Part shown: piece after piece, positions 11,317 through 40,800 of the stretch
Numbering within the stretch: position 1 is the first letter of the stretch
Layout of the letters: each line of letters begins with the position of its first letter
NCBI GenBank assembly: GCA_001724265.1
Contig: MEDY01000017.1
Span: forward strand, 62,001 to 126,000
Length of the DNA stretch: 64,000 nucleotides
Origin: Rhizaria sp. SCN 62-66
Lineage: Eukaryota
Reading direction: 5' to 3'
The notes under the pieces: generated by a model
The model's database searches: none
Told to the model about the DNA's origin: nothing
What the model saw: only the letters and a program-made list of their open reading frames with translations
Translations under genes and position numbers: made by a program

Positions 11317-11376
<60 letters not shown>

Positions 11377-12272
11377 GCAGCGCGAGCGGTGCGGCGGCGG
11401 ACGCGGAGACCGCGCTGGGAACGGCGTACCTCGAGTTCCGTCCCGCCGCGCCGCTCCCGCCGCTGCCGCAGACACAGACGGCGGCGGCGCTGGCGACCGT
11501 GTTGCTGGGCCTCACACTGGGGTCCGCGGCGCTGACGCTGACGCTGCTGTCGGTGCCCGTGCTCGCCGTCGTGCACTTCGGCTGGACGCTGGTGGTCTCG
11601 GCGGGCGTGCTGGCACTGCTGGCCGTGGTGCAACTGCCGCAACCGTCGCTGCTCGCGTGGGCCGTCACCTCGGGCCGTCTATCGGACACGGCGGCGTTCC
11701 TCCTCGCGCAGCTCACGCTCGCGGGCGCGGCCGCCGTGCTCGCGCTGGCGCCCTTCGGCACGGCCGTCCCGCTCGCGCTCTACTCCGACGCCGCGGCCGC
11801 CGCGGGGCAGACAGTCGACGCGGGCGACCTTCTGACGCTCACACCGGACTTCGGCATTGGCCCGATCGTGTTCGTCAGCGCCGCGGCCGTGCTCGTCGGC
11901 GCGGCGGCCGTGCTGCGGGCCGTGGCGCGCACGTTCCTGGCGCAGCGCGATCACCCCGCGACGGCGGGCACGTGGCGCCGCGCGGATGTGATGTCCGCCG
12001 TGTTCACCTCGCTGGGCGCTGTTGTGGGCGCCTCCATTGCGGCGGCTGTCATGGCCAGCATCGAGGTGCCGTGGTCAGCGCTGGGCGTGATGAACGGCAA
12101 TCCTGCGGCGATCGTCGCTGCGGCGGGCTCGGATGTCGGCCCCGCGTGGCTGCTGCTCGCGACGTTCGCGCCGCTGCTTGCGCTCTCGGTGGTTATGCTG
12201 CTTGTCTCGCTTGTCACGCATGAGAAGCTTGCGACGCCGCCTGTGCACTCGATCATCCCGCACCAGCATTAA
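5517..12272 (+). CDS. SPX-MFS (PHT5/VPT-like) phosphate transporter-like protein with a degenerate SPX domain and large low-complexity insertions
   Basis: IKVGPMLE...VPFLPDWKVLKKVVKK resembles the SPX start (MKFGK...Y/F-xxYKxLKKxIK). Two bundles of hydrophobic helices follow. AFLCALNVFALLPSA, GYRATLL...LLANVLF and LAHRLTVDHLPIHTR resemble SPX-MFS transmembrane motifs. Ends TAA. Confidence 0.7.
11316..11372 (+). repeat. (GGC)n coding microsatellite, about 19 Gly
   Basis: GGC trinucleotide run with one GGT interruption, inside the SPX-MFS ORF. Confidence 0.9.
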
Positions 12273-19272: not shown

Positions 19273-22200
19273 TCAAAAGAAGCGTCGCCAGAGCGAATCG
19301 AAGATTCCCTTAAGCACGACGCCAGCCAGACGAGGCAGGTTCTCGACCGCGTCCGCCACATAATGCGCCACTAACAGCTCACCCACTGTGCGCGAGTCCA
19401 CGCGCACTGCGCCGCAAGTCTGCTGCGAGTCTCCACCGACGACTGTACTCGTGTTCACGATAGTGGTGCTTGTGCTTGCACTTGCGCTCGATGCTGGCAC
19501 GGCTGCCGTGCTCGCGGTGGCCCGCCCTGCAGCAGTTGCTGCGGCAGAGGGTGGCGCTGCCACCGTTCCTAGCGGGACGGCGCGGAGATGCAGTGCAGTT
19601 GTGGTCACGTCAAGCCTGTCACACTGCAAGTCAAGCGGCACTGCGCGTCGCATCGCGGCTACTGCCACAGCAGCTGTCGCAGCAACATCAAGCGTACTGC
19701 CCTCTGTCTCAGCAACGTTCCTGTCTGAGGAGTTGGAAGTGCCTGCGGGGGTAAGCAATCCCGTTTCACGGACGGCAGAAGCAAGTGTCGCAAGTGAGAG
19801 TGATGGAATGGTGGCATTTGCTGTTGCTGCCGCTGCAGCAGCAAGCATCGGTGTGGCGTTCACAGCGGTCGTGGCAGATGCAGCAGTCCCAGCGTTCCGG
19901 CGCCCACGCAGTTTCAAAGACAGACGTGCTGTAATAGCAGGGGCACGCAGCAGCGCCAGGGGCAGCAGCGTTGACGGAGATGCGGCATCGGTGGGTGTCA
20001 ACAGCGTTTCAGCTAAGGCAGGCATCGCAGTTGCCATAGCGGCGACGCGTGAGACTGTCTCAGTTCCTGAAAGCACAAGCGCAGTGATTGCGGGCGCCAA
20101 GGCGGTGACTGTCGCCTCTGCGTCGCGAACATTGACACGAATAAGAGGCTGTGTTGCGCGTGCAACAGGCAATGCACTCGTGCCTGGCGCCGCCTTTGCG
20201 TTGCTGGGTAGTGTAGTCATATCCTCATCTTGTGTGGATGAGTCGAATGCGAGCAGACTCGCTGCGGTGAGATCAACTGACGATGCTGAACTAGGCGGGA
20301 AATCAAGTCGCCAGTGTTGCGCACCCGGCGGTGCAGTATCATTCGCAAGCGTAAGCGCGCGAGAGCCAACTGTGAGCATGCACAGTGCAGGTCCTGAACT
20401 TAATGCGTTATCCGTCGCGTCAACGCCGACGCGCGTGGAGACTAAACCCAACTCAACAAGCGGCTCAACACTTCCGTTCGTATCGGAAACTGCTGCAGCG
20501 GTGAGAGATGCAAGAGATGTGACCGTGAACATCGCCTGTGTGGGAACGCATCCCGTAGCAGCGCTACCCAGGCACGCCGGCGGCAACAGTGCGAGCTCAT
20601 TCTCCAACTGCGGAGCAAACGCTGATGGGATTGAAAGTGGTAACACGGCAGACACGAGCGCGCGTGCGGCTGTTGAAGTGTGGAACAATGTTAACGGCAA
20701 TAGTACGCTGCGATGCGTTAGTCCCGTGAGTGAAATAGTAGCCAGAGGCTTTGCAGAGTGCGTCGAATCAGCTTGACTCAGAAGAGTGGCGGTCAGTGCA
20801 GCAACAGAAATGTCAATCGAGCCTTGCGCACGGATTAAGTGCAATGGACGAGGGACACCCTGTGTCATCAACGACTTCGGTGCGGGTGTGTCAGGCAGCT
20901 TGATGATTGCGTACGTTGTTCCGTTGTCAGAAACAGTAACTGTAAGCACCAATGTCTGTGTCGCCCCGCTTGCACCTTCGCCGGACGTTGATAGTCTATC
21001 GTCAGCATGGGATTGTGAGGAGACATCAGAGTGGGAAGAAGTCGAATCCGCATTTGAATACGGCTGATGGTTATGTTGTGTTCTATGATGCGCAAATTTA
21101 ACAACGATGGGTTGTCCCTTGCCTTGGTTGCTCAGGTCTGTGGATATTTGGACTGGATGCGATGGTGCAGACCAAGGGCCCCAGGTCGCGGGTCGCGTCA
21201 GCGGCCGGCGGCAAGATACGCTCAACGACACAGCCTCTTGAACTCTGTCTTGCGAATTAGCGTTTGCGTCAACTTCTATTTTTTGACGTGCGGAGCCGGA
21301 GTCAAGCACGGCAATGCTGCCGGGTTGTCCCAGCCAAACGGGATCTAGCGCAAGCTCCACTGCTGCATGCGCGGGCAGCGAGTGTGGCGCGTGCGTGGGG
21401 AATGCTACTGCCGCCGAGACTAGCGCGGGCTGCCCTGCAACGCCGGCTGCACCGCCAGAGAAGCCCATCGACGATAGTAATGAAGAGGAGCGCGCGCGAC
21501 CGCGGCTGGCAGCGGCTGCAGCAGCAGCGTCGAGACTTTGCTTGTCAAACCCGCCTGCGCCTCTGCGAGGAAGCTTCTGGCCTTTGGCTGCAGCGCCAGG
21601 TGCAGTCGCTGCAAACGGCAGAAACGGTAAAGGTGTGACGCGCAGCTCAAGAGGCGTTGCGTTCACCAATACAACGCTGTTGACGACACGGCCAACAGCA
21701 GCGGCAGCCGACGCAGCTGCTGTAGATGACGAATGTGCATTGACGACCCCCTTACCAGATGAAGAAAATAGCGCCTGCGCCAACAGTCCGCTGTCATCAT
21801 CTATATCAATCACCGTTGAGACACAGTTTCCACGTGTGCGCCGTTTCGTGTCGCTCTTTTCTGAGACTTGCAACGTCGTGTTGGATAGCGCGTCAGCGTT
21901 AGCGGCCGCAGTAACGCGCGCCGCAACTGTTGAGCCTACTGTAGCCGCAGTACCAGTGCGCTTGCTCGCAGGCACCATAGTTGCCGTAGGCCCCGGCGCA
22001 GTACGTGCGCCCAGTGCAGGCGCGGGTAACACTGTTGCCACAAACAGTTGGGGCAGCGCTGCAGCGGCGCGTGGTGCCGGGCTCCATAGCGTTGCGCCCA
22101 CGTCTGATTCAACGGTAGGAAAACTGGGCAGCGTAGTTGCGGTAGCGACTGACGGCCGCTGACGCCCTCCATTGGCACTAACGGCGCCGCAACTCGGGCC

Positions 22201-25200
22201 CGCAGTGACGCTGGTGTTTATGCGCGGAGTGAGATCATGCAATAAAAATAGTGCGTTACACCAACGAAGTCCTGCATTTTTCTCAGCAGCACTGGAGTCG
22301 AAAATCGGAATCGACGCGAGCAGGTGCGCAACAGACACGTTAACTTGAGTCAAGACACGTAGCCTATCAACATCACCTTTACGTTGGAGCGCAGATACAC
22401 CAGTCACGGGGTGTAAGTTTGCCGAAACAAGGGCGCTGTCGGGCATCAAAGCAACGCCCGCGACAGGGCTCACAACGCCCAGAGCGGCGAGGCCTGCCAG
22501 CGCAGTCGACGCACCTCGCTGGCGCGCATTAGTTTGCAAGGTTGCGGCGACGGTCGGTGTGAGCGCATCCGCGGCATCTGGTAACGACAATAGCAGGTGA
22601 GCAATTGCGCCCACTGTCATACCGCTGCACAGTGCCGCAGCGTCGCTTTGCGTCTGACCCGGCAAAGCGATGTCGGAGTGCGGTGGCGACAGAGCCACAG
22701 TTGTGTGATGTGGCGTGATTAGTGCAAACAGCGCCAGATCTGATGGTGAAGGGTCGGTCCAGCACAGCTCAGTAGGGGGTTTCGCAGCTGTATCTGTGCT
22801 GACGTGCTCATCACTGCGCACGCGCTCAAGCGCAAACTGTGTGCCAACACCCAGATGTACAAGCAGCGATGCCGCGCCTCCAGCGCGCGCCAACTGTGTG
22901 AAACATGGCAACGATACTGTCAACGCCTCTGCTGCGTGTTTACCTGTCATAGCATTAAGCTGCGCCAATGGAGACAGGAGACGTGGAAGACCTGGCACTG
23001 TTGTACGCGCACACACAGCAGCTTCTGCGGGGTCTTGCGACAAAGATAAAGTCATGCCTGCGCTCGCAACCACGCCTGGCGCGCCCATGCCTGAGACTGT
23101 GGGGGAAAATAACGCTGACCGCGTCACAGCTGCAGCATCTAACACTGTAACGCGCGTCACCGTGCGCGTCCAAAGACGCAACGGCCGACGTACTGAGCCC
23201 AGTGACTGTGATGTTATGGCTGAGAGTGCAAGCGGGGCCACTGCAGAGATGGCCGGCGTAACAGTAAGCACAAGGCGACGTACAAGCCGACGCTCAGACA
23301 AAGATGTGCTGTCGTTGGAAACTCCGGTGGGACTCGTCGAAAGCGATGGCGTCGCAAGTTCAGATACGGGTGACGGCACTGCAGCAGTCGGTGCAGAGCC
23401 AAACGGATGAGCCGCCCACTGCCACCAAGTACGGCCACCAGGGCTCAACACAGACGCAGATGAATTGGTCGCGGAAGACATACTCGCACGAGCAGCCTCG
23501 AGCGCGCAGTCCTCGCAGTCAGGGATGCGGGGCGGTTCACAGAGCTCTGCAGTCACAGTGAGCACTAATGGCATCACGGTTGCGCCATTACTGTCACTCG
23601 CGGTTGTCAACTGTGGCGGTGCCCCAGTAAAACCGCCAGTCGCCGTCGCCCAAACCACAGTCCGCACAAGCACGCCCAGTGGCAGCTCTTCCCCATTGGC
23701 AACTTGTACGCTACTCTCGGGCTTAGAAGTGGTCGTCGTCTCCGCTGCAGTCGGTGCCGCAGCGCACTTTGTGCGCGACTGCGTGCGAGAGAGTGATCGT
23801 GACGTCGATCGCGAATTGGCGCGCGATAAAGAAGGCGCGGGCGTTGTCGGCGTCCCACCAGAAGCAGCTGGTGTTAAAGCGCCATCGCGGAGCACTCGGC
23901 TTTGCGAGCGGCTGATGGCTGGTGTTCCCGGCTTAGATGAAGCAGGTGTGCGCGCAGGTGACAATAACGTGGGGTCAAATAAACTCATCACGCTCTCTGT
24001 GTCACTGTAGTCATCATGTGCGTCGTCGCAACCACTGCTATAATCGCTTCTATAGTCATTACCTTGGTCGCCACCATGCTCATTGTCAACATCGCTTGAC
24101 TCAAAGTCGCCGCGGGCGTCAATGCTATCATAGACACCCATGGGCGCACTGGTGAACATTGACACCTCTGCTCTCGCGATGCTCGAAGGTACGTGTGAGG
24201 CGTGGTGGCGGTGTTTGCTCTTTGGTGCAAGTAATGTCGGATATAGCGCTGTGACAATGGCTGCAGGTAATACCGTCCTGTAAACAGTACCTGTTCCCTC
24301 TGATAGCGACAATGCAACATGTGGTGCAAAGCCAGTCTTTTTCTGTCTCTCTGGTGTCACCAGCAGTGCAGTCTGTGTTCGCGCCAACGAGCCTCCAAGC
24401 CAGTGCATACTATTGCATGTCGTCGTTGCAGCTTCACCGCCGTCATCCACTGTGAGTTTCACTGTGAGTGGTGTTACGTTGCGCAGCACGCGCAATGGTG
24501 TCACTGAAACTGATACAGTTGCACCAACACTCGCAGCATCACCTGCTGTGGTCGCGCTACAAATATGCCGAGGCAAAACTGTAAGTAAAGCAGTGGAAAC
24601 TGCAGTTGATGGTGTAATCGTCAGCGCACCAGCAGGCCCTACAGGTCCTACAAGCCACTGGGACGCGCGGTCAACTGAGCGGCGCAGCTGCTGCGCCAGC
24701 CTCTGCAGCTGATCTGGAGCAGCGGCCGCCAATGCGAGTGCAGTCGCGGCACCACGGGAGCCCGCTGGGTGTGTAGAGTGAGGCAAAATAGGCTCACTGT
24801 CCGTGTCGCCCGTGAATATGTGCGCCACTGCGGCCGTCTCTGCGCAAGGAGCAACGGATAACATCAACGGTATTGTTGGCACTGGAAGTGCAAGGTCCGA
24901 GGACCCATCGCGCGGGGCAGTCGTAAGATCAAACGACAAGTTGAATTTTGTCTCATCTGCAGTTGAAGTTGGCGTAACCCTAAGCGTTGACTCCCACGGC
25001 AGGCTTGCTCCACTTGCCCAGTCAGCCAGTCCACCAGCAAGCGTACTGCTCGCCTCAATGCGTGGAGTTTCTTCCGTATGCGCCGAAGTCACAAGCGCAG
25101 GAGTAGTAAACCGTCGCTGTGCCGAAGTCGTTGTGGTTGCAATCTTTGCCGCAGCCTCGACCTCTGCACAAGCAGTGGCAAGTAGTGGAAGCAGAGGCAC

Positions 25201-28200
25201 AATAGATGAGCGCACAGAGCCAGTAGTCGTAGTTGTAGATGTGAAACGAAGTGCAGACGGGATTGTGATAGTAACTGGTGCCACGCGCACAACAAGGTGG
25301 CCACCAAACGGGGGAGCAAGCGTGGGACCTTGAGAGGGCAAAATTGAGACTGAGACGCGTGCTGGTTCGATGACAGTGTGCGCTGCGCAATGTGTCGTGT
25401 TGGTGCGCAGAGCAGGTACTGAGACTGAAAGTGCAAAGCCAACAGCTGCCAGCTGCAAGGGTCCGTTATCAAGGCCCATTAGGGCAATGCGGGGAGTAAG
25501 TGTGCGGATTAAGTTGGGTGCAACAAACTTAAGTGCTTCTGCATAAATTGCCGGCTGGCCTGACTTGTACAAACGCTGCAGTTCGGTTAAAGCCAAATGT
25601 GAGGAGTTGAGATTTGTTACTGTGCAAAATAAGACCGGAGACTCCGTGCAAATCAAACTGGGTGGTTGAGCTGTAGATGATACACGTGCGGTGCCAGTCT
25701 CATGCTGAGCAACAGTAATAGCCACATCAATCGGCGCCGTCGCCGTGAGAGCATATGATGTACGCAGTGTGTCAACTGCAAAAGCAGCACCAGATGTAGT
25801 GGATGCACCCGTGAGTAGCAGTCCGCGGCATGCTGTTGCAAACAAACTGCATACAGCGTCCTCAGCAGACTTCGTTGTAGCTAATGCCGCAGTGGCTCTA
25901 TCGTAGTCGGTAGCATCTTGCTGTACGCATGATCCCATGTGTGGCAACAACACTGCTGCATCAATCGTTACAATCCATGCACGCGCGCACACAGGTGTTG
26001 ATCCGTCGCGTGAGACAGCATTATCAAGATCACGCCTGTCCGCGTCAGCTGCCTCATTAAGCGCCTCGTCATCATCTGGCAGAAACGAAACTCCCGCGCT
26101 ATGCGTGCTAAATAATGCATTTGCATCAATAGTCATTGAAAACCCCTTTTCAAGTTCACAGGCCCCATCTTCAGCTTCAGTAGAACCAGTGTTTGCGTTC
26201 GTAATAGCTAGCATGGACTCAATGGGTGCATCCGCAAGGGAACACGGAACTGGCAGTGCGGTCACCGTGATTTGCGGCCCGTGGGTGCTAGTGATTGGAA
26301 GCAAGGTTGCAATCATTGCTGCACATGCTTCTGCCTCTTCAACAGCAGCGGCATCAGCCACACTCACAATAGCCGTGGGCATAGTTGTTGTTGAAGCGGG
26401 CGCCAAGCGTGTAAGGCACACAGGGGCAGGAAATCGCATGAGCGCCGTATACCGCACACGAGGATGCATAGCAGCAGCCGCAATGATTGGTGAGGTGGCG
26501 CCATCGTCAGCAAGAGGTGTAGGATGAACGGCAATCGTAGACTCTGTCGTCGCAAGCGACAGGAGTGGCGCAACGAGAGTGTCCTGGAATGAGCTTGGCG
26601 CTACGCTGGGAGATGTTTGTGCTGGGACATTCGGCTTGGGCTATGTGAACGATCGACTTGTGCGTGGAGCAACTGTACCGAAAAATGCAATTGCCGGAAC
26701 GATTTGCGCCGCAGCTAGTGGAACGGATGTGATAAGACCAGTAATAGCGCCAAACAGTCGTGAAGGAATCGAGAGCGAAATGCGAGACCTGAGTCCAGAT
26801 GCTGCTGACGCGGGACAGAGAGTCAACCGCAACGAGTGTGAGCTGTCGACGCATGCGCTGTTGTCCGACATAATGCGAGCGGAGCGCAATGAACGCAGAG
26901 CAACGGTGACGGGTGACAATAAAGGAGTGATGCGAGGTTGCTGCGCCGCGACGTCAGGTGCATCAATCAGTGCGATAGTGAGCACTGGGCCCTCTGTCAA
27001 AGCGCTTGGTCCCGAGCCAGTTACAGACAGATTCATCGTGTCTTCCCATATTAGTCCGAACAGTCCACGCACTTCGGGTTCAGCTGAAGGTGATGATTGT
27101 TCTGACTGAGGATGAGATGGAGGATGAGAAGATGGAGACACACTCGCAGACGGTGCATCAGCAGTTCTCACGGCATCGGTTGGGCGGCTGCGCCAGGGTG
27201 AGCGTGCAGTGTCAAACCGTACAGTTCCAGCGCCAACAGTCAGCTGCATAACAGAGCCTGGCAACCGTGCACGCCGTTGCGGATCCGACAATACGTTTGC
27301 GATTGGCAGCGGGCCAAGCGCAACGCTTAGACCACCAAAGACAACGCGTGCTTTAACCTCTTGATCGAGCAGCTGCTGCAATACAGCTGCAGCAGGAGCT
27401 GAGGCGGTACTTGGTGACGCTGGTGAGCTCGTCGAGAGCACAGGGGTCTCACCCCACAATGCCGCTGCAGCAGCAGTCAACGCCGTAAGCGCGTTTGCTA
27501 CAGTGGGCGCAACCGCGGCAAGCGTGGAGGTTGCTGCGAAGATATCAGCTGTGGCAGCCACCGCACCAAGGCGCGCGCCCACATCGAGGTGTGCCAGCAG
27601 GGGCGACACAGACGTTGCTGCTCTAGATGGGAGGCGTGCCACAGGTTGAAAACGGCACAATGCGCGAAACACGGTGGGTGGAGATGGTGGTGATGCCGCA
27701 GCGTCGGTCAGTGCTGGCACTTGAATCGGCTTCCAAGTGAGTGAAAACAAGGCACGCGAGCTGCTTGCAGGTGCGCATCGTGTGCTGCTATAAGTAACCG
27801 CGGCATTGGAGCTCTTCGTTGGTAAAGACTTCTCTTCGTTTTTAGTCTGAGGTTCTGCGTGTGTCTCTGCCGGAACGCGTGCAGCCTTCGTGGTTTGAGA
27901 TATAGGAGAGACTGTTGACAGAGTTGCAGCAAGCGGCAGAGACTCAATAACAGCAGTAAATGCGCTGCTGTACACAGGTACCTGGCGAGAAAAGTTCAAT
28001 CGGCCACCTTGCCACCGCAGGCGCGCCTCGACAACGGGAGATGTTTTGAGATAAAGTGCTGCATCAAGACCGAGACACGTGATCGTCAGAGCCGAAACGC
28101 CATCCAGCGCGTGGTGAGCGCCGGTCTGCTGAGGCAGCATTGGCGACGCATCTTCATGTGTTGCTGTTGTTGAAATACACGCCGTGTTGCCCTTCGATAG

Positions 28201-31200
28201 CATCGAGCGGACCATGTTGGCAGCCCCTGTTGATACAGCAGCAATTGCATGTTGAATCATCAGCATCACAGCAAGCCCCGACGATAGCAAGAATAGCGCG
28301 TTCGCAGGGAGCACGTCAGCGCTGACTTTCACACCAGCCGCGTCTACTGCAGCGCCAAGTGACAGAGTCTCAACTGTGGCAGCAACGGCAACCGCAACAG
28401 GTGCCGGGCCAGAAGCAGTCAGTGCAGGTGCGGGCGTAAGAGTAAATTTGACGCCGGGCAGCACCAGTCGCACGTTATCACCACTCAGTCCTGTAGATGC
28501 GGTACTCAATGTCAGGGTTGGCGGCAAAAGTGTAAGAGCCAGATGACTGTGAGCGCAGCCAACACCTGCAGCGCCTGAACCACCGGCCGCCATTGCAACA
28601 GCGGCCGCAGCCGCTGACACAGCTGCCGCGTGCGCTTGGCGCCGTTGCTGTTCTAGCTACAACTGCAGCTGGTGCTGCTCGGGGCTCTGTGAGAGCGTGA
28701 GTGAGCGCGGAAAAACTGGCGGCGGTCCATGAAGCAACGCCGCGTTATGCTGAAAGAAGGCAACATGGCGCAGCACCGCACCGACAGGAGGTACTGCACC
28801 TGCTGCAGCGGTGGCCTCAGGTGCTGTAGGTGGCGGGCGCGGGAAAGGAAGCGTCTGCAACGCGCGAGACAGCATTGGTGCGAGTGATGTGATGCATGCA
28901 GATGAAGCAGCTGATGCGGCTACAATCACGGCCGCTGGAACCGGCCCCTGGGGTGTCTGGATGTGATGTGTGGCTGGTGATGGCAAAAGCAACGGCAAAG
29001 AGACCACATGCGCGCCGGGAATAGATAGAGCGGCTGCGTGTGCGCCTGTGCCGGCAGAAATAGGCGCAAGCCCAACGTTGATGCTCGAAGGCGCTAGTAC
29101 CCAGAAGGCATCGCTTGCGGCCATATCGACCAAAGGAGGAACAGTGGTGTGAGTGGGCGCTGATGTTGAAGCTGTGGAAACGTTTTGCGGAGGGATCAGC
29201 GCAGGAGGTAATAGCGGCAGCGATGCTGCAACGGCGAATAGTGATGCAATCAAGGGTGCAAACTCCATCGGTGATACGTGCATGCTAATGCCCGCAACAG
29301 CGCCCAGAGTAACTAAGCGTGGCAATGCAACCACAGTGCCGCGCAATCGCGGAGCTGCCGAGAAAGACGAGACTGCGGTCATACCTCCCCAGTCAAGAAC
29401 GCGTGGAAACGCCATGCGTCGTGCAGTCACAGACATAAGCGTGTCAGCATACGATGTTGGCTCGCGTGACGTGGGTGATACGACAAACGGTGGCACGGTC
29501 GTTGTTAGCGCAACCCAGCCTGCAGACAGTGGTCCAACAGAGAGGGCCGTCACGTTGTGTGACGCGGAGCTGTCCAATGCGCTCGCCATTGCAAGGCTCG
29601 AGGGCTGGGGAAACTGACGCAAAGACACGAAAGATAGCCGTAGCAGCAGCGCACGCGTCGACACGGTAGTAGATGTGGCAGCCATCTTGGTGCTTGAGTT
29701 AGCGGGCTCCGCAGCACGTGGCATCCTAACCGCAAGAGTAAGCTCTGACACGGTGATGGCAATGGGAGTTGCAACAGACACCAGCGCGTCGGTCATCGCA
29801 GCGGGTGCTGGTGCAAACGGGGATGTAAACGGACTCGGTGTTGCAGGAGCGACAGCCGCCGCAGTAGTTGTAGCAGCTGCGCCCGCATCAACTGGCGTCG
29901 GGCGAGCAGCCTTGGCAGTAGCAGCGGAGCTCGCAAACGCCGTAAACGCCGGTGTGCTCAAAGTCGCTGCGATGCTGCGCAGCGCGCGTAGCAGCACAGG
30001 TTCCTCGCCGTCGGAGGCTCCGCATGGCCCAGCAAGGTCGAGAAACACTCGACCGGTACCAACGGTGACCGTAGTACTCACAGTCGCACCCTGCGCAACG
30101 CCTGACCCGGCCCCCACCCCCGCCGCCGCGGCAGCGGTGGCGGAGGCGGCGGCGGCGGGGCTTGTAGCGCCAGCTGCTGCTGCAGCTGCATAGGGCGCTG
30201 AAGCCGTGCGTGAAATCCGAAGCGCGCATGCGTGTGGCAGCGGATAAATCACCGCTGCGCCCGTCGCGGGGTGCGGTGGCGCAAGCGGCGGGGTCAGTGC
30301 GGCCCAGAGATCTTCGAGCGCGACACGCACGCGGCGTGAACCGAGGCGAGTCGCGACAGAGTGACACGCGAAGAGCGACAGCGGCAAAGTCGCGGGAAGT
30401 GGTGTCATAGCACCAGCAGCCAAAGGCAGCGCGGGCGAAGCATCGAGTGGTAAAAGTGGTTGCACAATGTGCTCAGGTCCCCACACTGCAACTACAGTAG
30501 TAGACAGCGTGTTGTCAAGACTATCCCTCTCCAATGCAACCACGTCAATCGAAGCGCGAGCGTGTTGCTAATGCGTTAGCAATGCGAGGGCACCGAATGA
30601 TAGCGTGAACAGCGGACCAGGGTGTGCCAACGCGCGCAGTGGCGTGCGAGACGAACGCGGGTCGGCGCGGTGCGTACATAGCGGTAATAACACCGCACGT
30701 GAACGCGCGTGTGCGGGAGCACCTCGCGCGCGACGGCCACCAAGAGGGGGCAGACCGCCGCACGCGCCGTTGTCGCCGTCGTTGTTGTCGTCGTCTTCGT
30801 CCTCGTCATCGTAGTCCTCGTCGTCCTCGTCATCAACAGCAGCGTTGCTTGAGGCGCCGGGACGGCATGTGTCATACGGCATCAGGAGCGGCAGCGGGAC
30901 GCGTGGCAAGCGCAGCGGCAGAGGCAACAGTACCCCGCCGTCGCCCGCAATCGCGGCGTCGTGCCAGGGCTGGTGCGTAAGCGTTGTGCCCGCGGGGACC
31001 ACATCGAGCACATTAGCCACCGCTGCTGCACCGCTCGCGTATACACTGCGCGCGCGTTGCCGCCCAGCACTCGTCGCAGCGGCGTCGCCACCGTCGTCGT
31101 CGAGGAGTCCGCTGACGGAAAGCATAGCGTCGTTCAGAGAAGCGGCCGCAGCCGTCGCTGCAGCTGCTGTTTCCGCAGCATCCGCAGGAACCAACGCTGC

Positions 31201-34200
31201 CGCAACAGGACACGGCAGTGGTGCAGTCAGTGCTAAAGATATCAAAGACAGTCGCAGAGTCAACATCGGAGTCGCGTGTTGTGCGGAAAGTACACGCGGC
31301 TTTTGTGTGTGATTGGTGCGTGAACTAAGTGCTACGCATGCAGGCAGTGAAATAAGCTCCCACAGAAACGCCGCCAACGACGGCGACACAGAAGCAATCG
31401 CGCGAGTAACCGCACTCATCGGGCCGTCGTCGCTCGCTTTCACCGAGGCAGGTGCAGTCGACAAAGAGCTCGCCTGCTCATGCATACTCGCGCGAGTGCG
31501 GCTCTCAGAACCAGTACTGCCCGCAGAGTTGCGGCGCGCAGCAACAGCAGCAGCGTAAGCGGCGGCAAAAGGCAACGGCGCGCGGCGCACAGTCACATGT
31601 ACTGCAACAGGCACGCGGGCTGCCGTTGAATTCTTTGCTTCAGCGGCTGTGGTAGGAGCAGGCATGTCACGGCACCAAACAACGGCAGCACCGGGAGCGT
31701 TTGCACTCACAGTCACGATATGGACAGGAGCAAATGGCAGGACGCGCCGCGCAAGCTCCGCGCGCTGAGCGCTTACGTCGCGCTCTAAGGCTGCGTAGGC
31801 TGCGTTGTTGCCGCGCGCGCCACGCGGCGCGGCTGCGCGCGGCGGGGACTGTGGCTCATCCTCAGACAGGCTCATCAGCGTGAGCGCGCTGATCGAAGAC
31901 GTGATGCCGCTGAGAAACCCCGACGCGGCGCCAGGTCGCTGCCGCACGGGCGGGGTCGCCAACACAGAGCGCGGCACGGCAGGGCCTGAGCCCGCGCCGC
32001 TGTCAGGCGCAAACGAGCAGGCTGACGCAACTGCGGCCGCGGCCAGCATAGCCGCTTCGGAGTCCAAATCAGTTAGCACGTCGGGTCGCTGTGGCAATGT
32101 GGAAGGTGCGGGAGCGAATGGTACGCTGTTGCTATCAGGCAATGGAGATGCGACAGACGAAGGTCCAGCTGCAAGAGAAGACAGCAGCTCAATCAGGTGT
32201 GACTCGGTGAACGCACGTAACTGCTGCGGGCGCAGCGCCACTGCAAGTGTGGTTTCAGCCGCAAGCGCAATCGCCACGGCAGGTCCTGCGGGCGCTGACG
32301 GTAGCTGTGATGTGTCCCTGTCAAGCTCAAACCCCAACCAAGGATGCACTGCGGTGCCACACGCCGCTGCCGCCACACCGGGGTCGTTATCAATGCTTCC
32401 GCTGTCAGCGCTTCTAGGCGTTCCAGATTGCGTTGGGGAGAGACATGCGGCGGCCCAGGAAGCAACGCAGGCTAAATGCGCAGTTACACGGATGCGCACG
32501 TTGAACGGGCTTAACACACAGTCCGTCCCATAAAACCCACGCATTGCAGGCCTCGAAACTGGCGCCTTCTTAGCAGTTGTGCTCGACGATGTGGTTGCAC
32601 GCGATGCGGCGTTAGTTGCGCGTTGCGTGCGTGCTTTCCGCGGTGGACATGTCGAGATGTAAATCGCTAGCCCACGGACGCGAATCTCGCGGTGCACACG
32701 CAGCCAGGGGCCCGCAGGCACTGCAAACGCCTCGGTCCACTCGGGTGCATCCGCAAACACGCCACGCTGCGCAGCGCTGACGGGGCCACGTGGCGGTTGG
32801 GTGGAGTGCGCTGCCGACTGAGGGGCAGCACTCTGAGGAGGTGCAAGAGGAGCAGAACGCGATGATGCCGAAGAATGGTTTGGCGCTGAAGCTGAAGCAA
32901 ATGCTGTGGTCTGCAGCCCAGGTCCCGGCAGCAGTGGTGGAGGAGGCAGCGGGCCGTGCTGTCGGCCAGCGTCAGCGCTGTTCACATTCGAGTTTGAGTC
33001 AGCAGGTAGCATAGTGAGTGGGTCGTCCAGTTCAGAAGGCAACTCACCACGTATCGCACTCAGAAACGAGCCAAAATACGATGCCACCTGCGCAGCAGAC
33101 TGCGCGGCGCTGGTTGCAAGACCGGGGCCAGTGGCGGCGCGCCGGACCGTGGGTTGGGGCGGCGCCGCGGCAATTGCTGCAGTCGCCGTGGCGCTAATTG
33201 CAGCGGTTGTGGCGGTATCTGGGTCAATCAGAGCAGACAGGCTCTCTGCGTTTGTGGTAGTGCGGGATAGGGTGTTTAAGCCGGTGGCAGTAGCCGTAAA
33301 GCCAGTATTGCCTACACCCACGGGATGAGTGTGAGTGGAAGAGCCGGGAACAAAGCCAGTATTCTGTACTGAACCGGTTCCTGGTGTGCCTGGTTCACAG
33401 TCGCCGTCGGTGTCAGTCTCCTGCTCAGAGTCGCAGTCGGAAAGGCCCTCGTGCGGTGTCGTCACTACAGAGTCGATGTCGCCATCGTCGTTGGCAATTA
33501 CAGCGGATTTAGTCGCGCTAACGCCAGCGGGTGGCGACTGCGACTGCGTCACAGGTGCAGGCTGGGTGGCAGACGCAGAGGCGCCAGCGGCAGCTGTCGC
33601 GGGGGCAAAAGTAGCACCAACAGGAGCGGCAGTGGGCGGCGTAACAATAGCACGCGGGCGCGCAAGAGAGAACAAACGCTCACGCGTGGACTTACCGGAG
33701 GTTGCAGTCGACGCGGCGGTCTTGCTTCCATCATGAGAGACAGCAGAGTCTGTAGACACAGCGCTAGGAACAGTCTGCGTTGCAGCGGCACCAGTGCGGG
33801 CGCCCTTCGTGGGTCCAGTAGAGGGGAATGTGCGTAACTGCGCAAGCTCGAGAGTGGCTTCAAGTCCGGTCGCTGGCTCAACGTAGCGGAGCCGCACGTT
33901 GGTTAGGCGAGCAACGACGTTTGCCGCAATGTCGCGCGCCGCGTGCTAGAGCATCGCGCTCGCCGCCGCTGCGGTTGTCACGTGCGCCGCGCCACCGCCA
34001 ATGTCCGGCGCGGGCGACGCTGGCGTTGGCAGGGGAGTGGGGGGCAGCACGGGCGGCGAGAGTGGTGAGGCAGCGGTGGCAGATGCGGCAGAGCCGTTGG
34101 GCGGGGTGGCAAGCTAGAGCGTGATCTCAAGCCCGTCGACGTGCACAACGGTTGACGATGAGAAAAGACGTGACCATGGTACGTCGACGTTCAACGCCTT

Positions 34201-34482
34201 GATCGAGGCGTTTGTGATGCGGAGCCCAGGGGGCAACGGGAGGACATCGGCGAGAGCTGCAAAGCGTGCGACACAGGTGACAAACAGTGAGATGAGCAAA
34301 GATATTGAAGGGTACGTAGAGACAGTTGAGATAAATTCAAAGAACTGGGGCGTACCTTCTGTTTTTACGCGAAGATTCTCAAGGGAGATCTTGCCTGACC
34401 AAAGGGAGAGCTTGGTATCGACGTCGTAAAAGTACTTGTGTGTGTACTTTTGCCAGAGCCCCGAGAGGAAACCCTGCAACAT
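19273..34482 (-). CDS. VPS13: VPS13-like (chorein-N) bridge-like lipid transfer protein, about 5036 aa if one intron is removed and five in-frame TAG codons are read as sense
   Basis: After splicing 34257..34355 the N-terminus reads MLQGFLSGLWQKYTHKYFYDVDTKLSLWSGKISLENLRVKTEALADVLPLPPGLRITNASIKALNVDVPWSRLFSSSTVVHVDGLEITL (chorein-N), later DIAANVVARLTNVRLRYVE. ORF pieces 34114..34482, 30568..33897, 28657..30543, 26641..28620 and 19273..26469 share one frame and are separated only by TAG. VAB-like repeats (RVLRNVTPLTV, VVLVNATPLELRV) occur. Ends TGA. Confidence 0.8.
34257..34355 (-). other. Spliceosomal intron in the VPS13-like gene (99 nt, phase 1)
   Basis: GTACGC...TTTGCAG and pyrimidine-rich. 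Removing it restores the chorein-N spacing (LRVKTE-ALADVL). Confidence 0.8.
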
Positions 34483-34801: not shown

Positions 34802-37800
34802 TTATGTAAGGTGGAATCCGGTCGTCTGCATCGCAATGCGCAGCTTGTGCTCAAGCACTTCCTTGCTGCGATACCGCGGCAACTTAATCAAGTTAAAGCA
34901 CGTCGACGCCGACGGCAGCGCGCTGCGGTCATCCGCCGCCGCCCCGCCCACACCAAACATCCCGCCCAGCGCCCCCAAGATCCCCCCAGAGTCGTTGTTA
35001 TCGCCTCCGTAGTCGGAGAGGTTGTGCACACGGACCGCGAACGGCGGCGTCATGTGCCGGAACCCTCCCAGCGGCGGCCGCGAGCACGCCGTAGCAAACC
35101 GCAGCAGCGCGGACCGCTCCGCCGGCGTGAACTTGGCCACAACCTCCCAGAACCAGCGCACGATATCGTCCCCCGGCGCCGCAGTGCCGTTGTACACTGT
35201 GTGCGCGCGCCAGTCGGCGACGTCGATGTCCTGCCGCGAGCCGGCGACGAGGACGCCCAACTCGGCGGCGTCGAACAGCCGCGTCCAGTGCGCAGGCACG
35301 ACGGAGTGGAACCCGTCGAGGAACGCGTCGGTGGCGCCCGCGGTGGCGCGAGTGAGGTAGTAATCGCTCAGCAGGAGCAAGTACTCGGACACGTTGTCAC
35401 GCGTTACCGCAACGTCTGCGCCACCAGGACGCAGCGCGCGCGTAATATGCCGCCCCAACACGTCCTCGGTGACCGAAAACGTGAGGCCGAGGTCCGCGAA
35501 GTCGCCCTCAAAGCCCGCGAGCAGCTGCAGCGACCGGTACAGAGCCGGGTCGAGCACGCGCAAGTCCGCGATGGTCGGCCGCTGACCCGTGAGACGCGCG
35601 AGGAAGAAGGGCGCGAACGGCACTTCGATCAGAATCCCTTCGTACAGTGCCTTGCCGACGACCTGACCGGCGAGGCGCATCAACGCGCGGTTTTCTGGCA
35701 AGATGCGTCCGGCCGGATTGGGCACGTAGAAAGTCTCGCCGGCGTCAAGCGCAGGCACGGCGGCCTCCACGGCGACTGCGGACGAGTCGGCGGCCGACGC
35801 GGCGGCGGCAGCGGCGGCGGCGGCGGCTGCAGCGGCGGCGGCGGCGGCGGCTTCGGAGGCAGCGTCCGCTTGGGCGCCACTGCTGCGCGCGGCCGCCGCC
35901 GCAGCGGCCGCGGTCGCCGTCGCCGCGGTGGCGGTGGCGGCCGCGACGGCGGCGGTGGTGTTCGCGTGCGCTGACGCCGCGGAGACCGTGGCAAACTCCA
36001 GCGGCACTGGCGCGGTGACCGTGAACAGCCCGGCCTCAGCGCGGAACAACGCCTTGAGCAGCAGCTCGAGAAACTCCTGGAACGGGCCTCCGGAGTCGAT
36101 GCCTGCCTCGGCCTCACCAGTCACGGGGTCGACGAACGTCACCGCAACGCGCCCGTTCCACCGGTGGCCGATCTGCTTCAGCGCATCGAGCGCGTCTGCG
36201 ACAACGCGATCGCGGCGAATCGTGATATGCGCGGCGGGCGCCGTGCCCCAGCCCTGGGCTGTCTGCAGCGCGATCTTGTCCTTGGCGACGGACCGGCGCA
36301 GCGCGTCGACGCGTTCGGGAAACGGCAGCAGAAAGGGCGTCGCCGCGAGCACGCCCGCAAGCCAGGACGGGGCGCGCGTGGGGTACGCCAGCACGAGGTC
36401 ATCCGCGCTCACGGGGGCCGTCGCGGCCGCGGACAGCGCGGCGGCGGAGCCCGCGGCGGGGGCGGCGGTCGGCAATGGGATGCCTGAGGCGGCGACGGCG
36501 CGGACGAGCTCGGCGTGTGCGCGGCGCGAATCGCGGGCCAGGGCACGGCGCGCCTGCTCCGCGGTCACTACCGCACTCGAACTCGAACTCGAGCTCGCAG
36601 TTGTTGTAGAGGCCGCTGCACTAGCGTTATTGAGATCTGCGGACTCGTCCTCCGCGCCGTCGGCGTCGCTGTCACTGGCGGCGGCGTCTGCGTCCGCGTC
36701 CTCGTCGTCGTCCAGCGCAGCTGCACGGCGCAACAGGTAGAAAGCGCGCGCCTCCTTGCCAACCACGCCCGCGGCGGTATCGGCGACGTCGTTCTCGTCG
36801 CTGCCGCCGTCGTCGCCGTCGTCGCCGCCCGTCCCACGCAGCGCCCACGCGTGGTCGCGCATGCGCAGGCGTGTCGTGCGCGGCAACAGCGCAAAATGCC
36901 GGCCGAGAACAGCCTCCGCGGCCAAGTCAGGCCCGCCGTCGTCCCCAGCGACAGTGGCAGCGCCGGTGCGCGAGGGCGCTAACACTGCCCAGGAGAAGGG
37001 ATCCGCGCCCGTGGCCGCACTGGCGGGCGCGGCGGCGAGCCCCATCCCGCGCGCGTGCGCGGCCTCGGGCTGCGCAGCGCGGAGGTCGATCATGAACGGC
37101 ACGCGCGCGTCACGCTGGTGCAGCTCGCGGACGAGCCGGGCGAGCACAGGCAGCGAGCGCAAAGCGCCGGCGCGGACCAGCGGCTCGCGCGCGCGGGCGT
37201 GGGCGGAGACGCGCAACACGGCGGCCGCGGCGGCGCGGGCGGCGGCGGGGCCCCTGCGCAGCGCACGGTGCGACGCGATCATCGCTGCCAGTCCGCGGCC
37301 GCGCGCGCCGCCGCCGCCGGGACCCGCGGCAGCGCCCGCGACGACGGCGACCTTACGGGCGAGCGCGGCCTCTGCGGCAGACATCGACCTGACGGCCGCG
37401 ACGGACAGCCGCGCGAGCTGGCGGGTCATCGCGGGCGAGCCGGACGGCAGCGCGAGCGAGGCGGCAGCGGCGTCGGGCAGCGTCTGCAGTGCGGAGATAA
37501 AGCTCGACGACAGCGCGGCCAGCAGCGCGTGTGCGGCGGCCAGCGCAGCGGGCGGCAGCGGTGCGCCGGCGGCGTGCCTGCCCATTGCATGCGCCTGCGC
37601 CAGTAACCAGTCGGGCTGCGCGGCGTTGCCGCGACGCGAGCCGTTGCCCCCGTTGCCGCTGTTGGCGCCATTGCCGCTGTCTGCGCCGCGGGAGAACCCC
37701 CAGAAGGCGTCGCGCGCGGCGTTCGGCTCCGCAGCGGCGGCGGCGGCCGCGACGGCAGCGGGATCGTCTTGGTCGTCGTCGTCCACCTCATCGAAGTCGC

Positions 37801-40800
37801 CGTCACCGGCGGCAGCGTGATGTCCGTTGTCGCCGTCATCGTCCCGCATCGCATGCGCGGCCGCGAAGTCGTCGTCGAGCATCACGTCCACGCGACGGCG
37901 CCGCGCGCGCGCCTGCGCCTGCGCCAGACCGGCGCGGGCCTCCCGCGCGCGCCACGCCTGCCGCCAGCGCGCACCGGCCTCGCGGGCCTCGCGCCGCGCG
38001 GCTGCAATCTCGGCCTGCTCCGCACCGGCGCGCGCGCGCGCTGCGGCGGCTTCGGCGTCGTTAGCGTCCTCTCCGTCGCCGCGCGCGGGCGCGAGCGCGA
38101 GCCGGACGAGCCAGAACCCGAGAGCATACGCCTCGCGCAGAGCCGCGGCGCGGGAAGCGGCCAGCGGAGAGGATAGCAGAGCGGCCGGCTCGAGGCTGCC
38201 TTCAGCGGAGCCGAGCGGGGGCAGCGCGGCCGGCGGCCGCGGCGGCGGGTCGAGCTCCTCACGCGAGCCAGAGAACCCTGCGGCAACGGCGCGGAAGTAC
38301 GGGTTGTCGGGGGAGTCGAGCCGCGCATTGTAAAAGGCCAGGCGGCGGCGGAAGCCTGCATCGAGGCGGCGGTGCTTCCGCGCTACACCGGCCTCGTGCG
38401 CTGACTTGAGCGCTGTGAGCGTAGTCACGCGCGCGGTGAACAGCGCCGCGCCCCCGGTCACCCCGGCGGCGGGCGCTTTGGGCGCTGCGAGGGCGGGGGC
38501 CGCGGTGGTTGCGGCGCCCAGCGCGTCGAGGTGCGCGGTGAACGCCGGCAGCGACGGACACAGCGGCATGCCCACCGCAGTCTGCAGCTGCGCGGCCGTG
38601 AGCGGCAGCAGAGGCGTGCCCAGCGCAAGTGCCGTGTCCGCCGCGGCGACAGCCTCGGCGCCGCTCTCGTCGGCGGCCATGGCGTTCGCGGCGGCGGTGT
38701 TGGCGCCCGCGGCCGCCGCGGACAGGAGGCGCACCTGTGCCAGGAGAGTGGCGAGGGCGCCGGCGAGCGCGCCAGGCAGCGCGGCCGCGTCGGTCGAGAG
38801 CCCCGCGGCGGGCGGCGCAGCCACGGGCGGAGGCTGCATGCAGGTAGCGGCCGCGGTCAGCAGCCAGAGAGTGCCGGGAGGGGCGCGTGCCAGAGGCGCA
38901 GACCCGCCGGTACTCATGGGGGTACCTGTGGGACCTGCGACTGCGAAGACCGTGGATGTCTGCGCGATCAGCGGGCCGAGCTGTGCGAGGCGCGCCTTTG
39001 CGGCCGCGGGGGCGGCGGGGAGGCGGCGCAGCGCGGGGAAAGGCAGGCGCGGCATCGCAGGCGCGAGCAAGGGCGACGCCAGTGTATGCACGCCACGCGG
39101 TGACGCCAGCACACCAGCAGCACCGGCAGCAGAAGCGCCGGTGGCAGCAGCAATGACCGCAGTAACAGCTGAGGAATCTGAGTCTGGAGCGACCGCGGCG
39201 GACGCAGCGGCGAGGATGATCGCATACGGCGCTGCAATGAGAGCCTTGATCAACGGTGAGTTGAGCGACAGCCACGGCGCCACCGCAGAGGCTAACGCGC
39301 GCAGCGGGGACGCGCCCCCGGTGCTGTGGCCGTTGCCACAGAGTGCGGAGACGGGGAGTAGCGCCGGGGCGACCGGCCAGCACACGGCCGGCACGGGCCC
39401 GCGCGCGGCAGCGGCGGCCGCGGTGGCGGACTCCAGCGCCAGAGGCAGGCCGGCGCCGGCGCCCGCGGCCGGGTTGGCAATGGAGCTGGGCCGCGCGCTG
39501 TGTGCGAGCATGCCGCCCGCAGCGGTCCCACCAGTCGCAGCGGTCGCGCCAGAAGCGGCAGTCGCGGCAGAAGAACCGGCGGTTGCATTAGCCGCGCGGC
39601 GGCGGCGCAGCGGCAGGGGCACGAGCGCGGCTGCAGACGGGAAAGCGGGGCGCAGGAGCGTCGCCGGCAGCGGCAGCGGGGACGGAGGCGCAGGCACGGC
39701 CAGCAGAGCCACTGTGGCCGAAAGCACGCGCGCACTGACCGCGAGCGCCGCGGCGTCGCCGTCCGCGCCCGCTGCGGCCGCTGCGGCGAGCACGGCCAGC
39801 GCGCGCGCAGTGAGGGTCACCGCGCCCGCCGAGGCCTCGGCGGCCGCGCCGACAGCGGCCGCGCCCGCGGGGGCGGCTGCGGCGACGGAGCCGACCGAGG
39901 TGGCGACAACGCGTTCCGACAGAGCGCAGAAGAAAAGCAACAGTGCGGCCGCGGCCGAGGCGCGCGCGGCGGCCGCAGCGGCCGCGGCGGCGGCCTGCGC
40001 GCCCACAGTGCCAGCGAGGGCGCCAGTGGCGCCGTGGGCAGGCGCGGCGACCAGCAAAGACGCCAGCACGGGCGCACGCAGCGCTGAAGTGATACTACCT
40101 CCTCCAGCACTGCCGCCAAGACTACTGCTACTGCTGCTGCTGCCGCCAGCGGTAGTGACTGTAGCTCCAAAGGACGCGGATGAAGCGCCGGTGGGACGGA
40201 AGGCGGGTGTAAGCGCGACTGCTGGGCACGCGGCGTAGACTGCGCGCTGCCAGGAAGTTAGGCCGCCATGCACGCGCGCAAGGGAAAACGCCACCGGAGA
40301 CAGCGGCGACTGCGAACCTGAAGACTGCGCAAACAATGACGACGACGACGACGACGGCGAGGACAAATATGGCGATGAAGAGTGTGGCGAGAAGAGCGCC
40401 ACGGCCGCGGCGGCGAGCGGGCCCCAAATCGCTAAAACGGCACTGGCGGTCGATGTTGCAGTCGCGCCCGCTGAAGCAGTCGGAAGTGCAGAGAGCGCGG
40501 CCGCAGCGGGCGCCAGTGCGACGAAGTGCAGCAAGTAACTCCGCAGCAGCAGGGACAGCAGTGGAGATAGCAGCGACGGGGCCCTCGCAGCCACCGCAGC
40601 GGCGGCGGTGGCGTTGGCACTGCTCGCGGCGCTATCAGTGTTGGTGGCGTCAGCGCAGAGGGAAGGCACATATGCGCACAGAGTAGGCACCGCGGTGCCG
40701 CCGAGGAGAGACGCAGATTGAGGGCCAGAAAAAATAAGCAACCTTGGGACGCTCCCAGTCCCAGTGCCAGCGCCAGCGCCAGACGCTGATGAGACGCTCC

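Follow-up and report, generated by a model that had tools for sequence, protein, structure and literature searches.

Evidence for a UAG-only change of the genetic code in Rhizaria sp. SCN 62-66, with a modest excess of cytosine after the reassigned codon

A predicted gene of the VPS13/ATG2 superfamily (chorein-N) lies on the minus strand of a 64,000-nucleotide stretch of Rhizaria sp. SCN 62-66 DNA (contig MEDY01000017.1, positions 62,001 to 126,000; G000:C17:62001-126000, hereafter the window). Its open reading frame, from 34482 to 19273, is open throughout only when TAG is read as sense. This raises the question whether UAG has ceased to be a stop codon in this organism or is still partly recognized by eRF1, as an earlier note on this DNA had proposed after observing that each of the five internal TAGs is followed by C and that true stops are mostly followed by a purine. 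We conclude that UAG alone has almost certainly been reassigned to sense, while UAA and UGA still act as stops, and that the code change is further along than leaky readthrough, because a tRNA with the CUA anticodon exists and terminal TAG is nearly absent. Residual recognition of UAG by eRF1, combined with selection on codon context, is what we infer from the base that follows the codon, the rarity of TAG and the residues kept in eRF1, with a probability of roughly 50%. The features concerned are as follows.

19273..34482, minus strand: VPS13/ATG2-superfamily (chorein-N) gene, ~5036 aa, five in-frame TAGs, stop TGA-A
34257..34355, minus strand: predicted in-frame GT-AG intron of 99 nt in this gene (gene model), with a consensus donor and without TAG
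34114..34116, minus strand: in-frame TAG followed by CTT, unchanged in X4 contig 34012-34471
33946..33948, minus strand: in-frame TAG followed by CAC, unchanged in poly(A) RNA contig X1 33767-34056
30568..30570, minus strand: in-frame TAG followed by CAA, 0 differences in X4 contig 30340-31188
28657..28659, minus strand: in-frame TAG followed by CTAG, within a Gln-rich stretch, codon unchanged in X4 contig 23401-29556
26641..26643, minus strand: in-frame TAG followed by CCC, codon unchanged in X4 contig 23401-29556
57515..57517, minus strand: sixth in-frame TAG, followed by A, in a low-complexity gene model (57991->54659) without a Pfam family

Our recount of the bases following these six codons gave the same result as the earlier note. 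Read errors are ruled out for the TAGs of the VPS13-like gene, as the contigs from run X4 and the RNA contig show no change at the codons; run X4 is possibly the source sample itself, and the RNA contig bridges one of the five TAGs (33946) and does not bridge the intron. The protein matched the Pfam families VPS13_N (E 6.7e-9, residues 1-42) and ATG2_CAD (E 1e-5), in both cases under the curated cut-offs. The GC content at third codon positions (GC3) of this gene is 0.53, as compared with 0.72-0.85 in most of its neighbors, and its five TAGs compare with 1.1 expected at the mean rate and ~2 at that of low-GC3 genes. Two other X4 contigs match its first exon over 34381-34441, with many third-position changes, and may stem from paralogs or related organisms.

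To place these codons in a wider frame, gene models were generated for 851 kb (contigs C1, C2, C3 and C5, and the window extended by 10 kb on either side), corresponding to ~2.4% of the 34.9 Mb assembly, which comprises 714 contigs and has GT-AG introns. The main set contained 157 gene models, 233,361 codons and 50 internal TAGs, and the bases 3' of TAG carried zero weight in the model. When TAG, TGA and TAA were all permitted inside genes at equal penalty, 46 internal TAGs were obtained, as opposed to 3 TGAs and 1 TAA. Among the 142 kinase-domain matches found genome-wide, 9 contained a single TAG as their only stop; a lone TAA was seen once and a lone TGA never. The nine lie in G000 at C16:108739-109518, C161:25912-26703, C6:139707-140321, C77:19386-19799, C53:73526-74485, C148:60374-60910, C49:42298-42813, C9:238626-239045 and C68:42488-42709. 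The terminal codons of the models were TAA (84, the commonest) and TGA (71; n = 155). In a permissive model, 11 genes ended at TAG, of which 9 continue in coding-like sequence, with scores that at most 3% of 149 TAA/TGA ends reach, and 2 are ambiguous, leaving 0-2 possible true TAG ends per 160 genes. The genome thus shows what characterizes a UAG-only code, namely in-frame UAG in intact genes unmatched by UAA or UGA, and UAA and UGA as gene ends. As far as literature searches show, such a change is new for this lineage.

It is very improbable, and largely refuted, that the TAGs are artefactual or removed from the mRNA, be it as errors, pseudogenes, splice acceptors or targets of RNA editing. 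Some mis-calls are conceivable, as 53 of the 161 predicted acceptors read TAG, and RNA cover is thin. Such artefacts leave unexplained, however, that internal TAA and TGA show no matching excess, that the TAG of the single-copy eRF1 gene described below recurs in an independent contig, that TAG 33946 is unchanged in RNA and that a cognate tRNA is present. The 161 introns included 17 that are open in frame, 5 of them with TAG, and the following bases there were C2 T3 A2 G2; a class of TAG-G sites hidden as false introns was rejected, since no large G class appeared among them.

Within genes, the TAGs were not depleted toward the 3' end (5 of 50 within 32 codons of the stop). Inside genes, a triplet that normally means stop encodes an amino acid here, as is also the case in Condylostoma, the karyorelicts and, for UAA, Blastocrithidia (PMC11687900, PMC12153298). 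In Condylostoma-type codes, however, the codon is also terminal and its position relative to the 3' end decides, whereas TAG is here practically never terminal. This is not a Condylostoma-type dual code, as neither the combination of terminal and sense use nor a depletion before the stop was observed. On the minus strand of G000:C3 (~167020-167220), a Gln/Pro-rich gene carries four TAGs in 66 codons, with a spacing of three codons between two of them; it is absent from the main model and was recovered at a lower penalty.

The genome contains one tRNA gene with the matching anticodon.

G000:C84:76008-76080 (L034 1489-1561), minus strand in L034: single tRNA gene with a CUA anticodon, located behind a protein gene and followed by a T run

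The acceptor, D, anticodon and T arms are intact and a terminator is present. This tRNA shares 47 of 73 positions with the organism's own tRNA-Glu(CTC) and 33 of 73 with tRNA-Gln(CTG), of which the genome contains several identical genes. Its first five acceptor pairs are common to both host Glu tRNAs, and it carries the Glu isotype set (U11-A24, U13-G22:A46, no residue 47, A37 and a Glu-type acceptor), as judged against the core identity set of glutamyl-tRNA synthetase (GluRS; PMC9976931); the GluRS determinant C36 is lost. Its body is thus of the Glu type, and it may be charged with Glu. The short-arm pattern retrieved no Gln-type CUA tRNA. A long-arm/intron pattern gave one unconvincing Gln-type CUA match, as compared with 4 control matches, but it requires TGGY in the D loop, so that a gene of the organism's own Gln(CTG) type with an intron would escape it. 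No tRNA with a UUA anticodon was found, the sole UUA-type match being a Lys(TTT) gene, in a search that covered intron-bearing genes in part.

The core of the CUA tRNA (positions 8-66) matches tRNA-Glu(TTC) of a Paenarthrobacter plasmid at 46 of 59 positions, Nocardia Glu(CTC) at 44 and the host's Glu(CTC) at 36. Its D and T arms are nearer to bacterial tRNA-Glu than to the host Glu tRNAs, and its acceptor stem is host-like. A pattern scan retrieved three CUA tRNAs of this type from bacteria, and two of them had 49 of 59 matches (one counted; the pattern itself fixed part of the positions). Viral contigs yielded no Glu-type CUA tRNA. The three bacterial ones, from Clostridia and Anaerolineae (L179, L180, L181), have a Glu-type body with CUA, and their ARAGORN label Pyl derives from the anticodon only. 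Within this comparison with host and bacterial tRNAs, the core looks bacterial, and it may also be a retained ancestral form.

The residue inserted at UAG can be named only tentatively. Glutamine seems the best single candidate, glutamate comes next, and the use of both is the least probable of the three. Glutamate is favored by the tRNA body and by eRF1, whose gene carries a TAG itself.

G000:C63 (L001 1594-1596), minus strand: in-frame TAG of eRF1, in the column of human E107, aligned without a gap

In this column, 117 homologs have E (108), D (8) or V (1, in the closest relative), and Q occurs in one other related locus. Glutamine is favored by the flanks of the 50 TAGs, whose Gln-like share was 0.99 (interval 0.73-1.0), by the weak alignment (E 1.1) in which TAG 34114 faces a Gln of human ATG2A, by the V of the closest relative and the Q of the other locus in the eRF1 column, and by the uptake of amber tRNAs by glutaminyl-tRNA synthetase, of which they can become substrates (PMC9976931). 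Leucine was rejected by the flank likelihood. Homologs contributed little else: 39 of the 43 TAG-bearing pieces have no Pfam family, the column of a zf-PARP domain is variable at the TAG, the VPS13 N-terminus gave no match at its TAG columns and a PTEN-C2 piece gave two spurious ones. The two lines of evidence can be brought together in several ways: most TAGs may have arisen recently from CAG by C-to-T change and now be decoded as Glu, the tRNA may carry Gln, the assembly may lack a Gln-type CUA gene, or both residues may be inserted.

TAG is the rarest codon of the sample (50 of 233,361; 2.1 per 10,000, or 0.02%), in agreement with the earlier note; extrapolated to the whole genome, this would amount to ~2,000 TAGs. 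It is found at 0.64% of the frequency of CAG, as compared with 23% for TTG relative to CTG. In Gln-rich flanks, TAG occurs 5 times, whereas missense interruptions occur 23-83 times (among non-synonymous codons, GAG 23, AAG 29, CGG 23). The absence of TAG from two long neighbors had also been taken as support.

5517..12272, plus strand: 2251 aa gene without TAG (0.48 expected), stop TAA-G
34802..42448, minus strand: HECT E3 ligase of 2548 aa without TAG (0.55 expected), stop TAA-G

This absence is uninformative, because only ~0.5 TAG is expected in each (probability of none ~0.6).

The single eRF1 gene (GC3 0.90) has its TAG at codon 111 of 442, in exon 2 and upstream of two introns; in a gene of this GC3 the chance of a TAG is 0.03-0.09. 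The codon is identical in a public metagenome contig, and the AAA that follows it is the only AAA among the gene's 32 Lys codons. When compared with the 117 homologs, the protein retains E55, Y125 and N129 and has the substitutions T32S, G57S, T58K, L124M and K130Q. In human eRF1, residues 55, 125 and 129 read the G of UAG, and T32S is largely neutral at all three stops (PMC3632111). UPF1 is present in the genome. The TAG might possibly act as a feedback site, like the eRF1 loop of plants, an idea that stems from one site noticed post hoc. Other eRF1-like sequences were noticed: in the metagenome contigs L163, L165 and L166 a TAA stands right after NIKSRV and the protein continues in another frame, whereas L158 and L159 have an in-frame TAA at Gln-like positions and probably stem from ciliates in which UAR (UAA and UAG) encodes Gln. 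The layout of the former three resembles the Euplotes eRF1 frameshift.

The base after the codon (+4) was C at 32, A at 9, G at 5 and T at 4 of the 50 internal TAGs, whereas the 155 true stops were followed by G (83), A (41), C (16) and T (15). Within the window, 12 of 16 stops precede a purine, much as the earlier note had it (12 of 15); our list omits a 17th position, 48122, where the model continues through an intron. The frequency of C at +4 is 25% over all codons, 29% for GAG and 49% for CAG, so that the excess is significant against both GAG (p 3e-7) and CAG (p 0.022). CAG is the fair control, because the flanks of TAG, next codon excluded, match those of CAG (Kolmogorov-Smirnov [KS] p 0.77) and differ from those of GAG (p 7e-11). 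Against CAG, p ranged from 0.02 to 0.04 across four model penalties (46-57 sites). The five Cs of the VPS13-like gene have a chance of 0.001 relative to all its codons and of 0.015 relative to its own CAG codons. A flank-matched CAG model predicted 22.4 Cs for all sites (p 0.003), and flank-matched models together gave p 0.0001-0.0065 for the 50 sites and 0.002-0.036 for the 44 outside the window's contig. These 44 new sites had 27 Cs, as compared with 20.4 expected (p 0.023), and 5 Gs, as compared with 9.7 (p 0.049). The share of C is highest at the next codon (0.64; the codons on either side of it have 0.46 and 0.44), whereas it is flat around CAG. No excess of TAG-C over CAG was found out of frame, antisense or in non-coding DNA, and a sequence-level or methylation cause was rejected on these grounds. 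The C bias is thus real as a count and about half of it reflects the Gln-like neighborhood; the remainder is borderline.

CAR-YYA and CUAG are named as readthrough motifs. The earlier note had invoked both, but CAR-YYA was absent from all 10 sites with a CAR next codon and CTA was the next codon at only 1 of 50 sites; this is not programmed UAG readthrough by a 3' motif.

These data are consistent with a scheme in which UAG has passed from stop to sense, UAA and UGA staying stops, and remains a costly codon. The product of the single-copy CUA tRNA gene would compete at UAG with an eRF1 that is not fully blind to it. Selection would keep TAG very rare and purge it more from strong-stop contexts (+4 G and A). 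The outcome would be a modest +4 C excess above the larger one that reflects Gln-like surroundings alone. The bias weakly suggests that UAG may still be half-read as a stop. Of the context-dependent decoding originally proposed, the C excess over flank-matched CAG has held; the dedicated tRNA and the near loss of terminal TAG go beyond leaky readthrough.

Several results weigh against this scheme. When each gene outside the window's contig contributed a single site, the median p was 0.048 for C and 0.17 for G in the CAG model, and 0.083 for C with any G-ending codon as the control. Eight sites from other loci (C4 A2 G2), joined to the 44, gave 31 Cs in 52 sites (p 0.08 relative to the CAG rate without adjustment). 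The excess derives only from Pro (8 versus 4.0) and His (7 versus 2.4) next codons, with Gln, Leu and Arg next codons below expectation among the 32 C sites (p 0.004); low-GC3 genes show it (18 of 22), whereas high-GC3 genes do not (14 of 28). A base other than C follows 18 of the 50 TAGs, including that of eRF1 (A). The eRF1 changes G57S, T58K, K130Q and L124M are absent or nearly so in the 117 homologs and may have abolished the reading of UAG. TAG frequency falls 8-fold with GC3 and was rejected as evidence of a special cost, because CAA (6-fold) and TTG (7-fold) fall alike, and the rarity of TAG can reflect either cost or the youth of the reassignment. The context excess is small, and choices made post hoc matter.

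Many of these points would be expected if reassignment were complete and free of context dependence, a serious alternative that we nonetheless consider short of probable. In that case eRF1 is blind to UAG, C-to-T changes turn CAG into TAG in weakly constrained stretches rich in Gln/Pro/His, and the +4 C is a by-product amplified by small numbers. The CAG-like flanks, the confinement of the excess to Pro/His and low-GC3 genes, the near disappearance of terminal TAG and the several substitutions in the eRF1 N domain agree with it, as does Blastocrithidia, in which flank effects at reassigned UAR lie at position -1 (PMC12153298). It does not account for the excess that persists in the flank-matched models or for the peak of C at the next codon, and, except in the case of a recent reassignment, it leaves the lower count of TAG than of missense codons in Gln tracts unexplained.

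The explanation closest to that of the earlier note assumes that the CUA tRNA is inactive or minor and that a near-cognate tRNA-Gln(CUG) reads UAG in the presence of a weakened eRF1, TAG surviving where the surroundings are Gln-rich and C follows. The Gln-like flanks, the identical tRNA-Gln(CTG) genes and the failure to find a Gln-type CUA tRNA speak for it. In yeast, readthrough is promoted by neighboring Gln codons and by a +4 C, with Gln as the inserted residue (PMC13192750), in a context similar to that seen here. The yeast values of a few per cent are, however, too low to sustain a gene with five TAGs or a TAG in eRF1, the CUA tRNA has intact arms and a terminator, and many TAGs lack +4 C; we regard this explanation as quite unlikely. 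Somewhat less unlikely, but still improbable, is a living ambiguous intermediate, in which UAG would be contested by eRF1 in a manner dependent on the next base, by the single Glu-type CUA tRNA with its bacterial-looking core and by near-cognate tRNA-Gln, yielding Glu, Gln or termination. The UAG-A of eRF1 would then be a feedback sensor that, with nonsense-mediated decay (NMD), cuts eRF1 output when termination at UAG is too strong. The readthrough/NMD loop of plant eRF1 (PMC5397192) resembles this in that the eRF1 mRNA itself contains a recoding site, through which the strength of termination could be sensed. Both the yeast and the plant case, however, concern standard-code organisms with low readthrough, and the plant site is the terminal stop, whereas that described here is internal.

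Among known nuclear codes, UAG alone is reassigned in Iotanema spirale (Gln) and the rhizarian exLh (Leu; PMC5304391, see also PMC9161772) and in phyllopharyngean ciliates (Leu or Gln; PMC11687900). A CUA tRNA was predicted for the former two (PMC5304391) and found for the Leu ciliates (PMC11687900). The present code resembles all of these in the sense use of UAG, the two remaining stops and the CUA tRNA, and differs from them in the rarity of TAG and the Glu-type tRNA. As in Iotanema, eRF1 is altered at T32, but to S and not to G, and L69 is kept. Neither a +4 bias nor a TAG inside eRF1 appears in the available portions of the accounts of UAG-only codes. In the other group, Oligohymenophorea sp. 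PL0344 reads UAA as Lys and UAG as Glu with ten CUA tRNA genes (PMC10553269), and Blastocrithidia reads UAR as Glu, with UAG making up 1.4-1.7% of codons (PMC12153298). The likeness to these species and to peritrichs lies in a Glu-derived CUA tRNA and the reduced use of reassigned codons. The differences are that UAA is also reassigned there, whereas it is the commonest stop here, that the flanks here are Gln-like, that PL0344 has ten CUA tRNA genes and not one, and that UAG is far more frequent in Blastocrithidia. UAG as Glu is known only together with reassigned UAA (PMC10553269, PMC12153298). No published case of UAG as Glu with UAA as a stop, and no account of this organism, was found in the literature searched, which was mostly open and excluded supplements, where context logos could bear on +4.

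Near-identical pieces of DNA are present in activated-sludge and wastewater runs. The top-scoring named relatives of the organism's lipoyl synthase (LipA) are those of the cercozoans Paulinella and Lotharella, and a quick LipA tree (65 of 120 matches used) placed the organism in a clade of 11 environmental sequences, with the deep forks open. A polyubiquitin-junction pattern, searched for lineage placement, gave no match. The 18S rRNA gene (L144; G000:C706:4459-8903) is very divergent, AT-rich and 4.4 kb long, and is split by several long insertions that resemble group I introns. A tRNA-Tyr gene on the minus strand of L011 (2709-2793) is interrupted by a short intron, and its T arm is irregular.

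For this wastewater protist, standard annotation truncates genes at TAG, including the VPS13-like gene, eRF1 and kinases. If UAG is indeed read as Glu, the code, with UAA kept as a stop, is unpublished according to our searches. The combination of a Glu-type tRNA with Gln-like positions tests how reliable the tRNA body and the codon neighborhood are as guides in code calls. The ambiguous-intermediate model of stop-codon reassignment has usually been argued from end states; a genome in which UAG works as a very rare sense codon, with a single tRNA gene and what looks like a remaining sensitivity to the 3' base, would open the model to direct tests.

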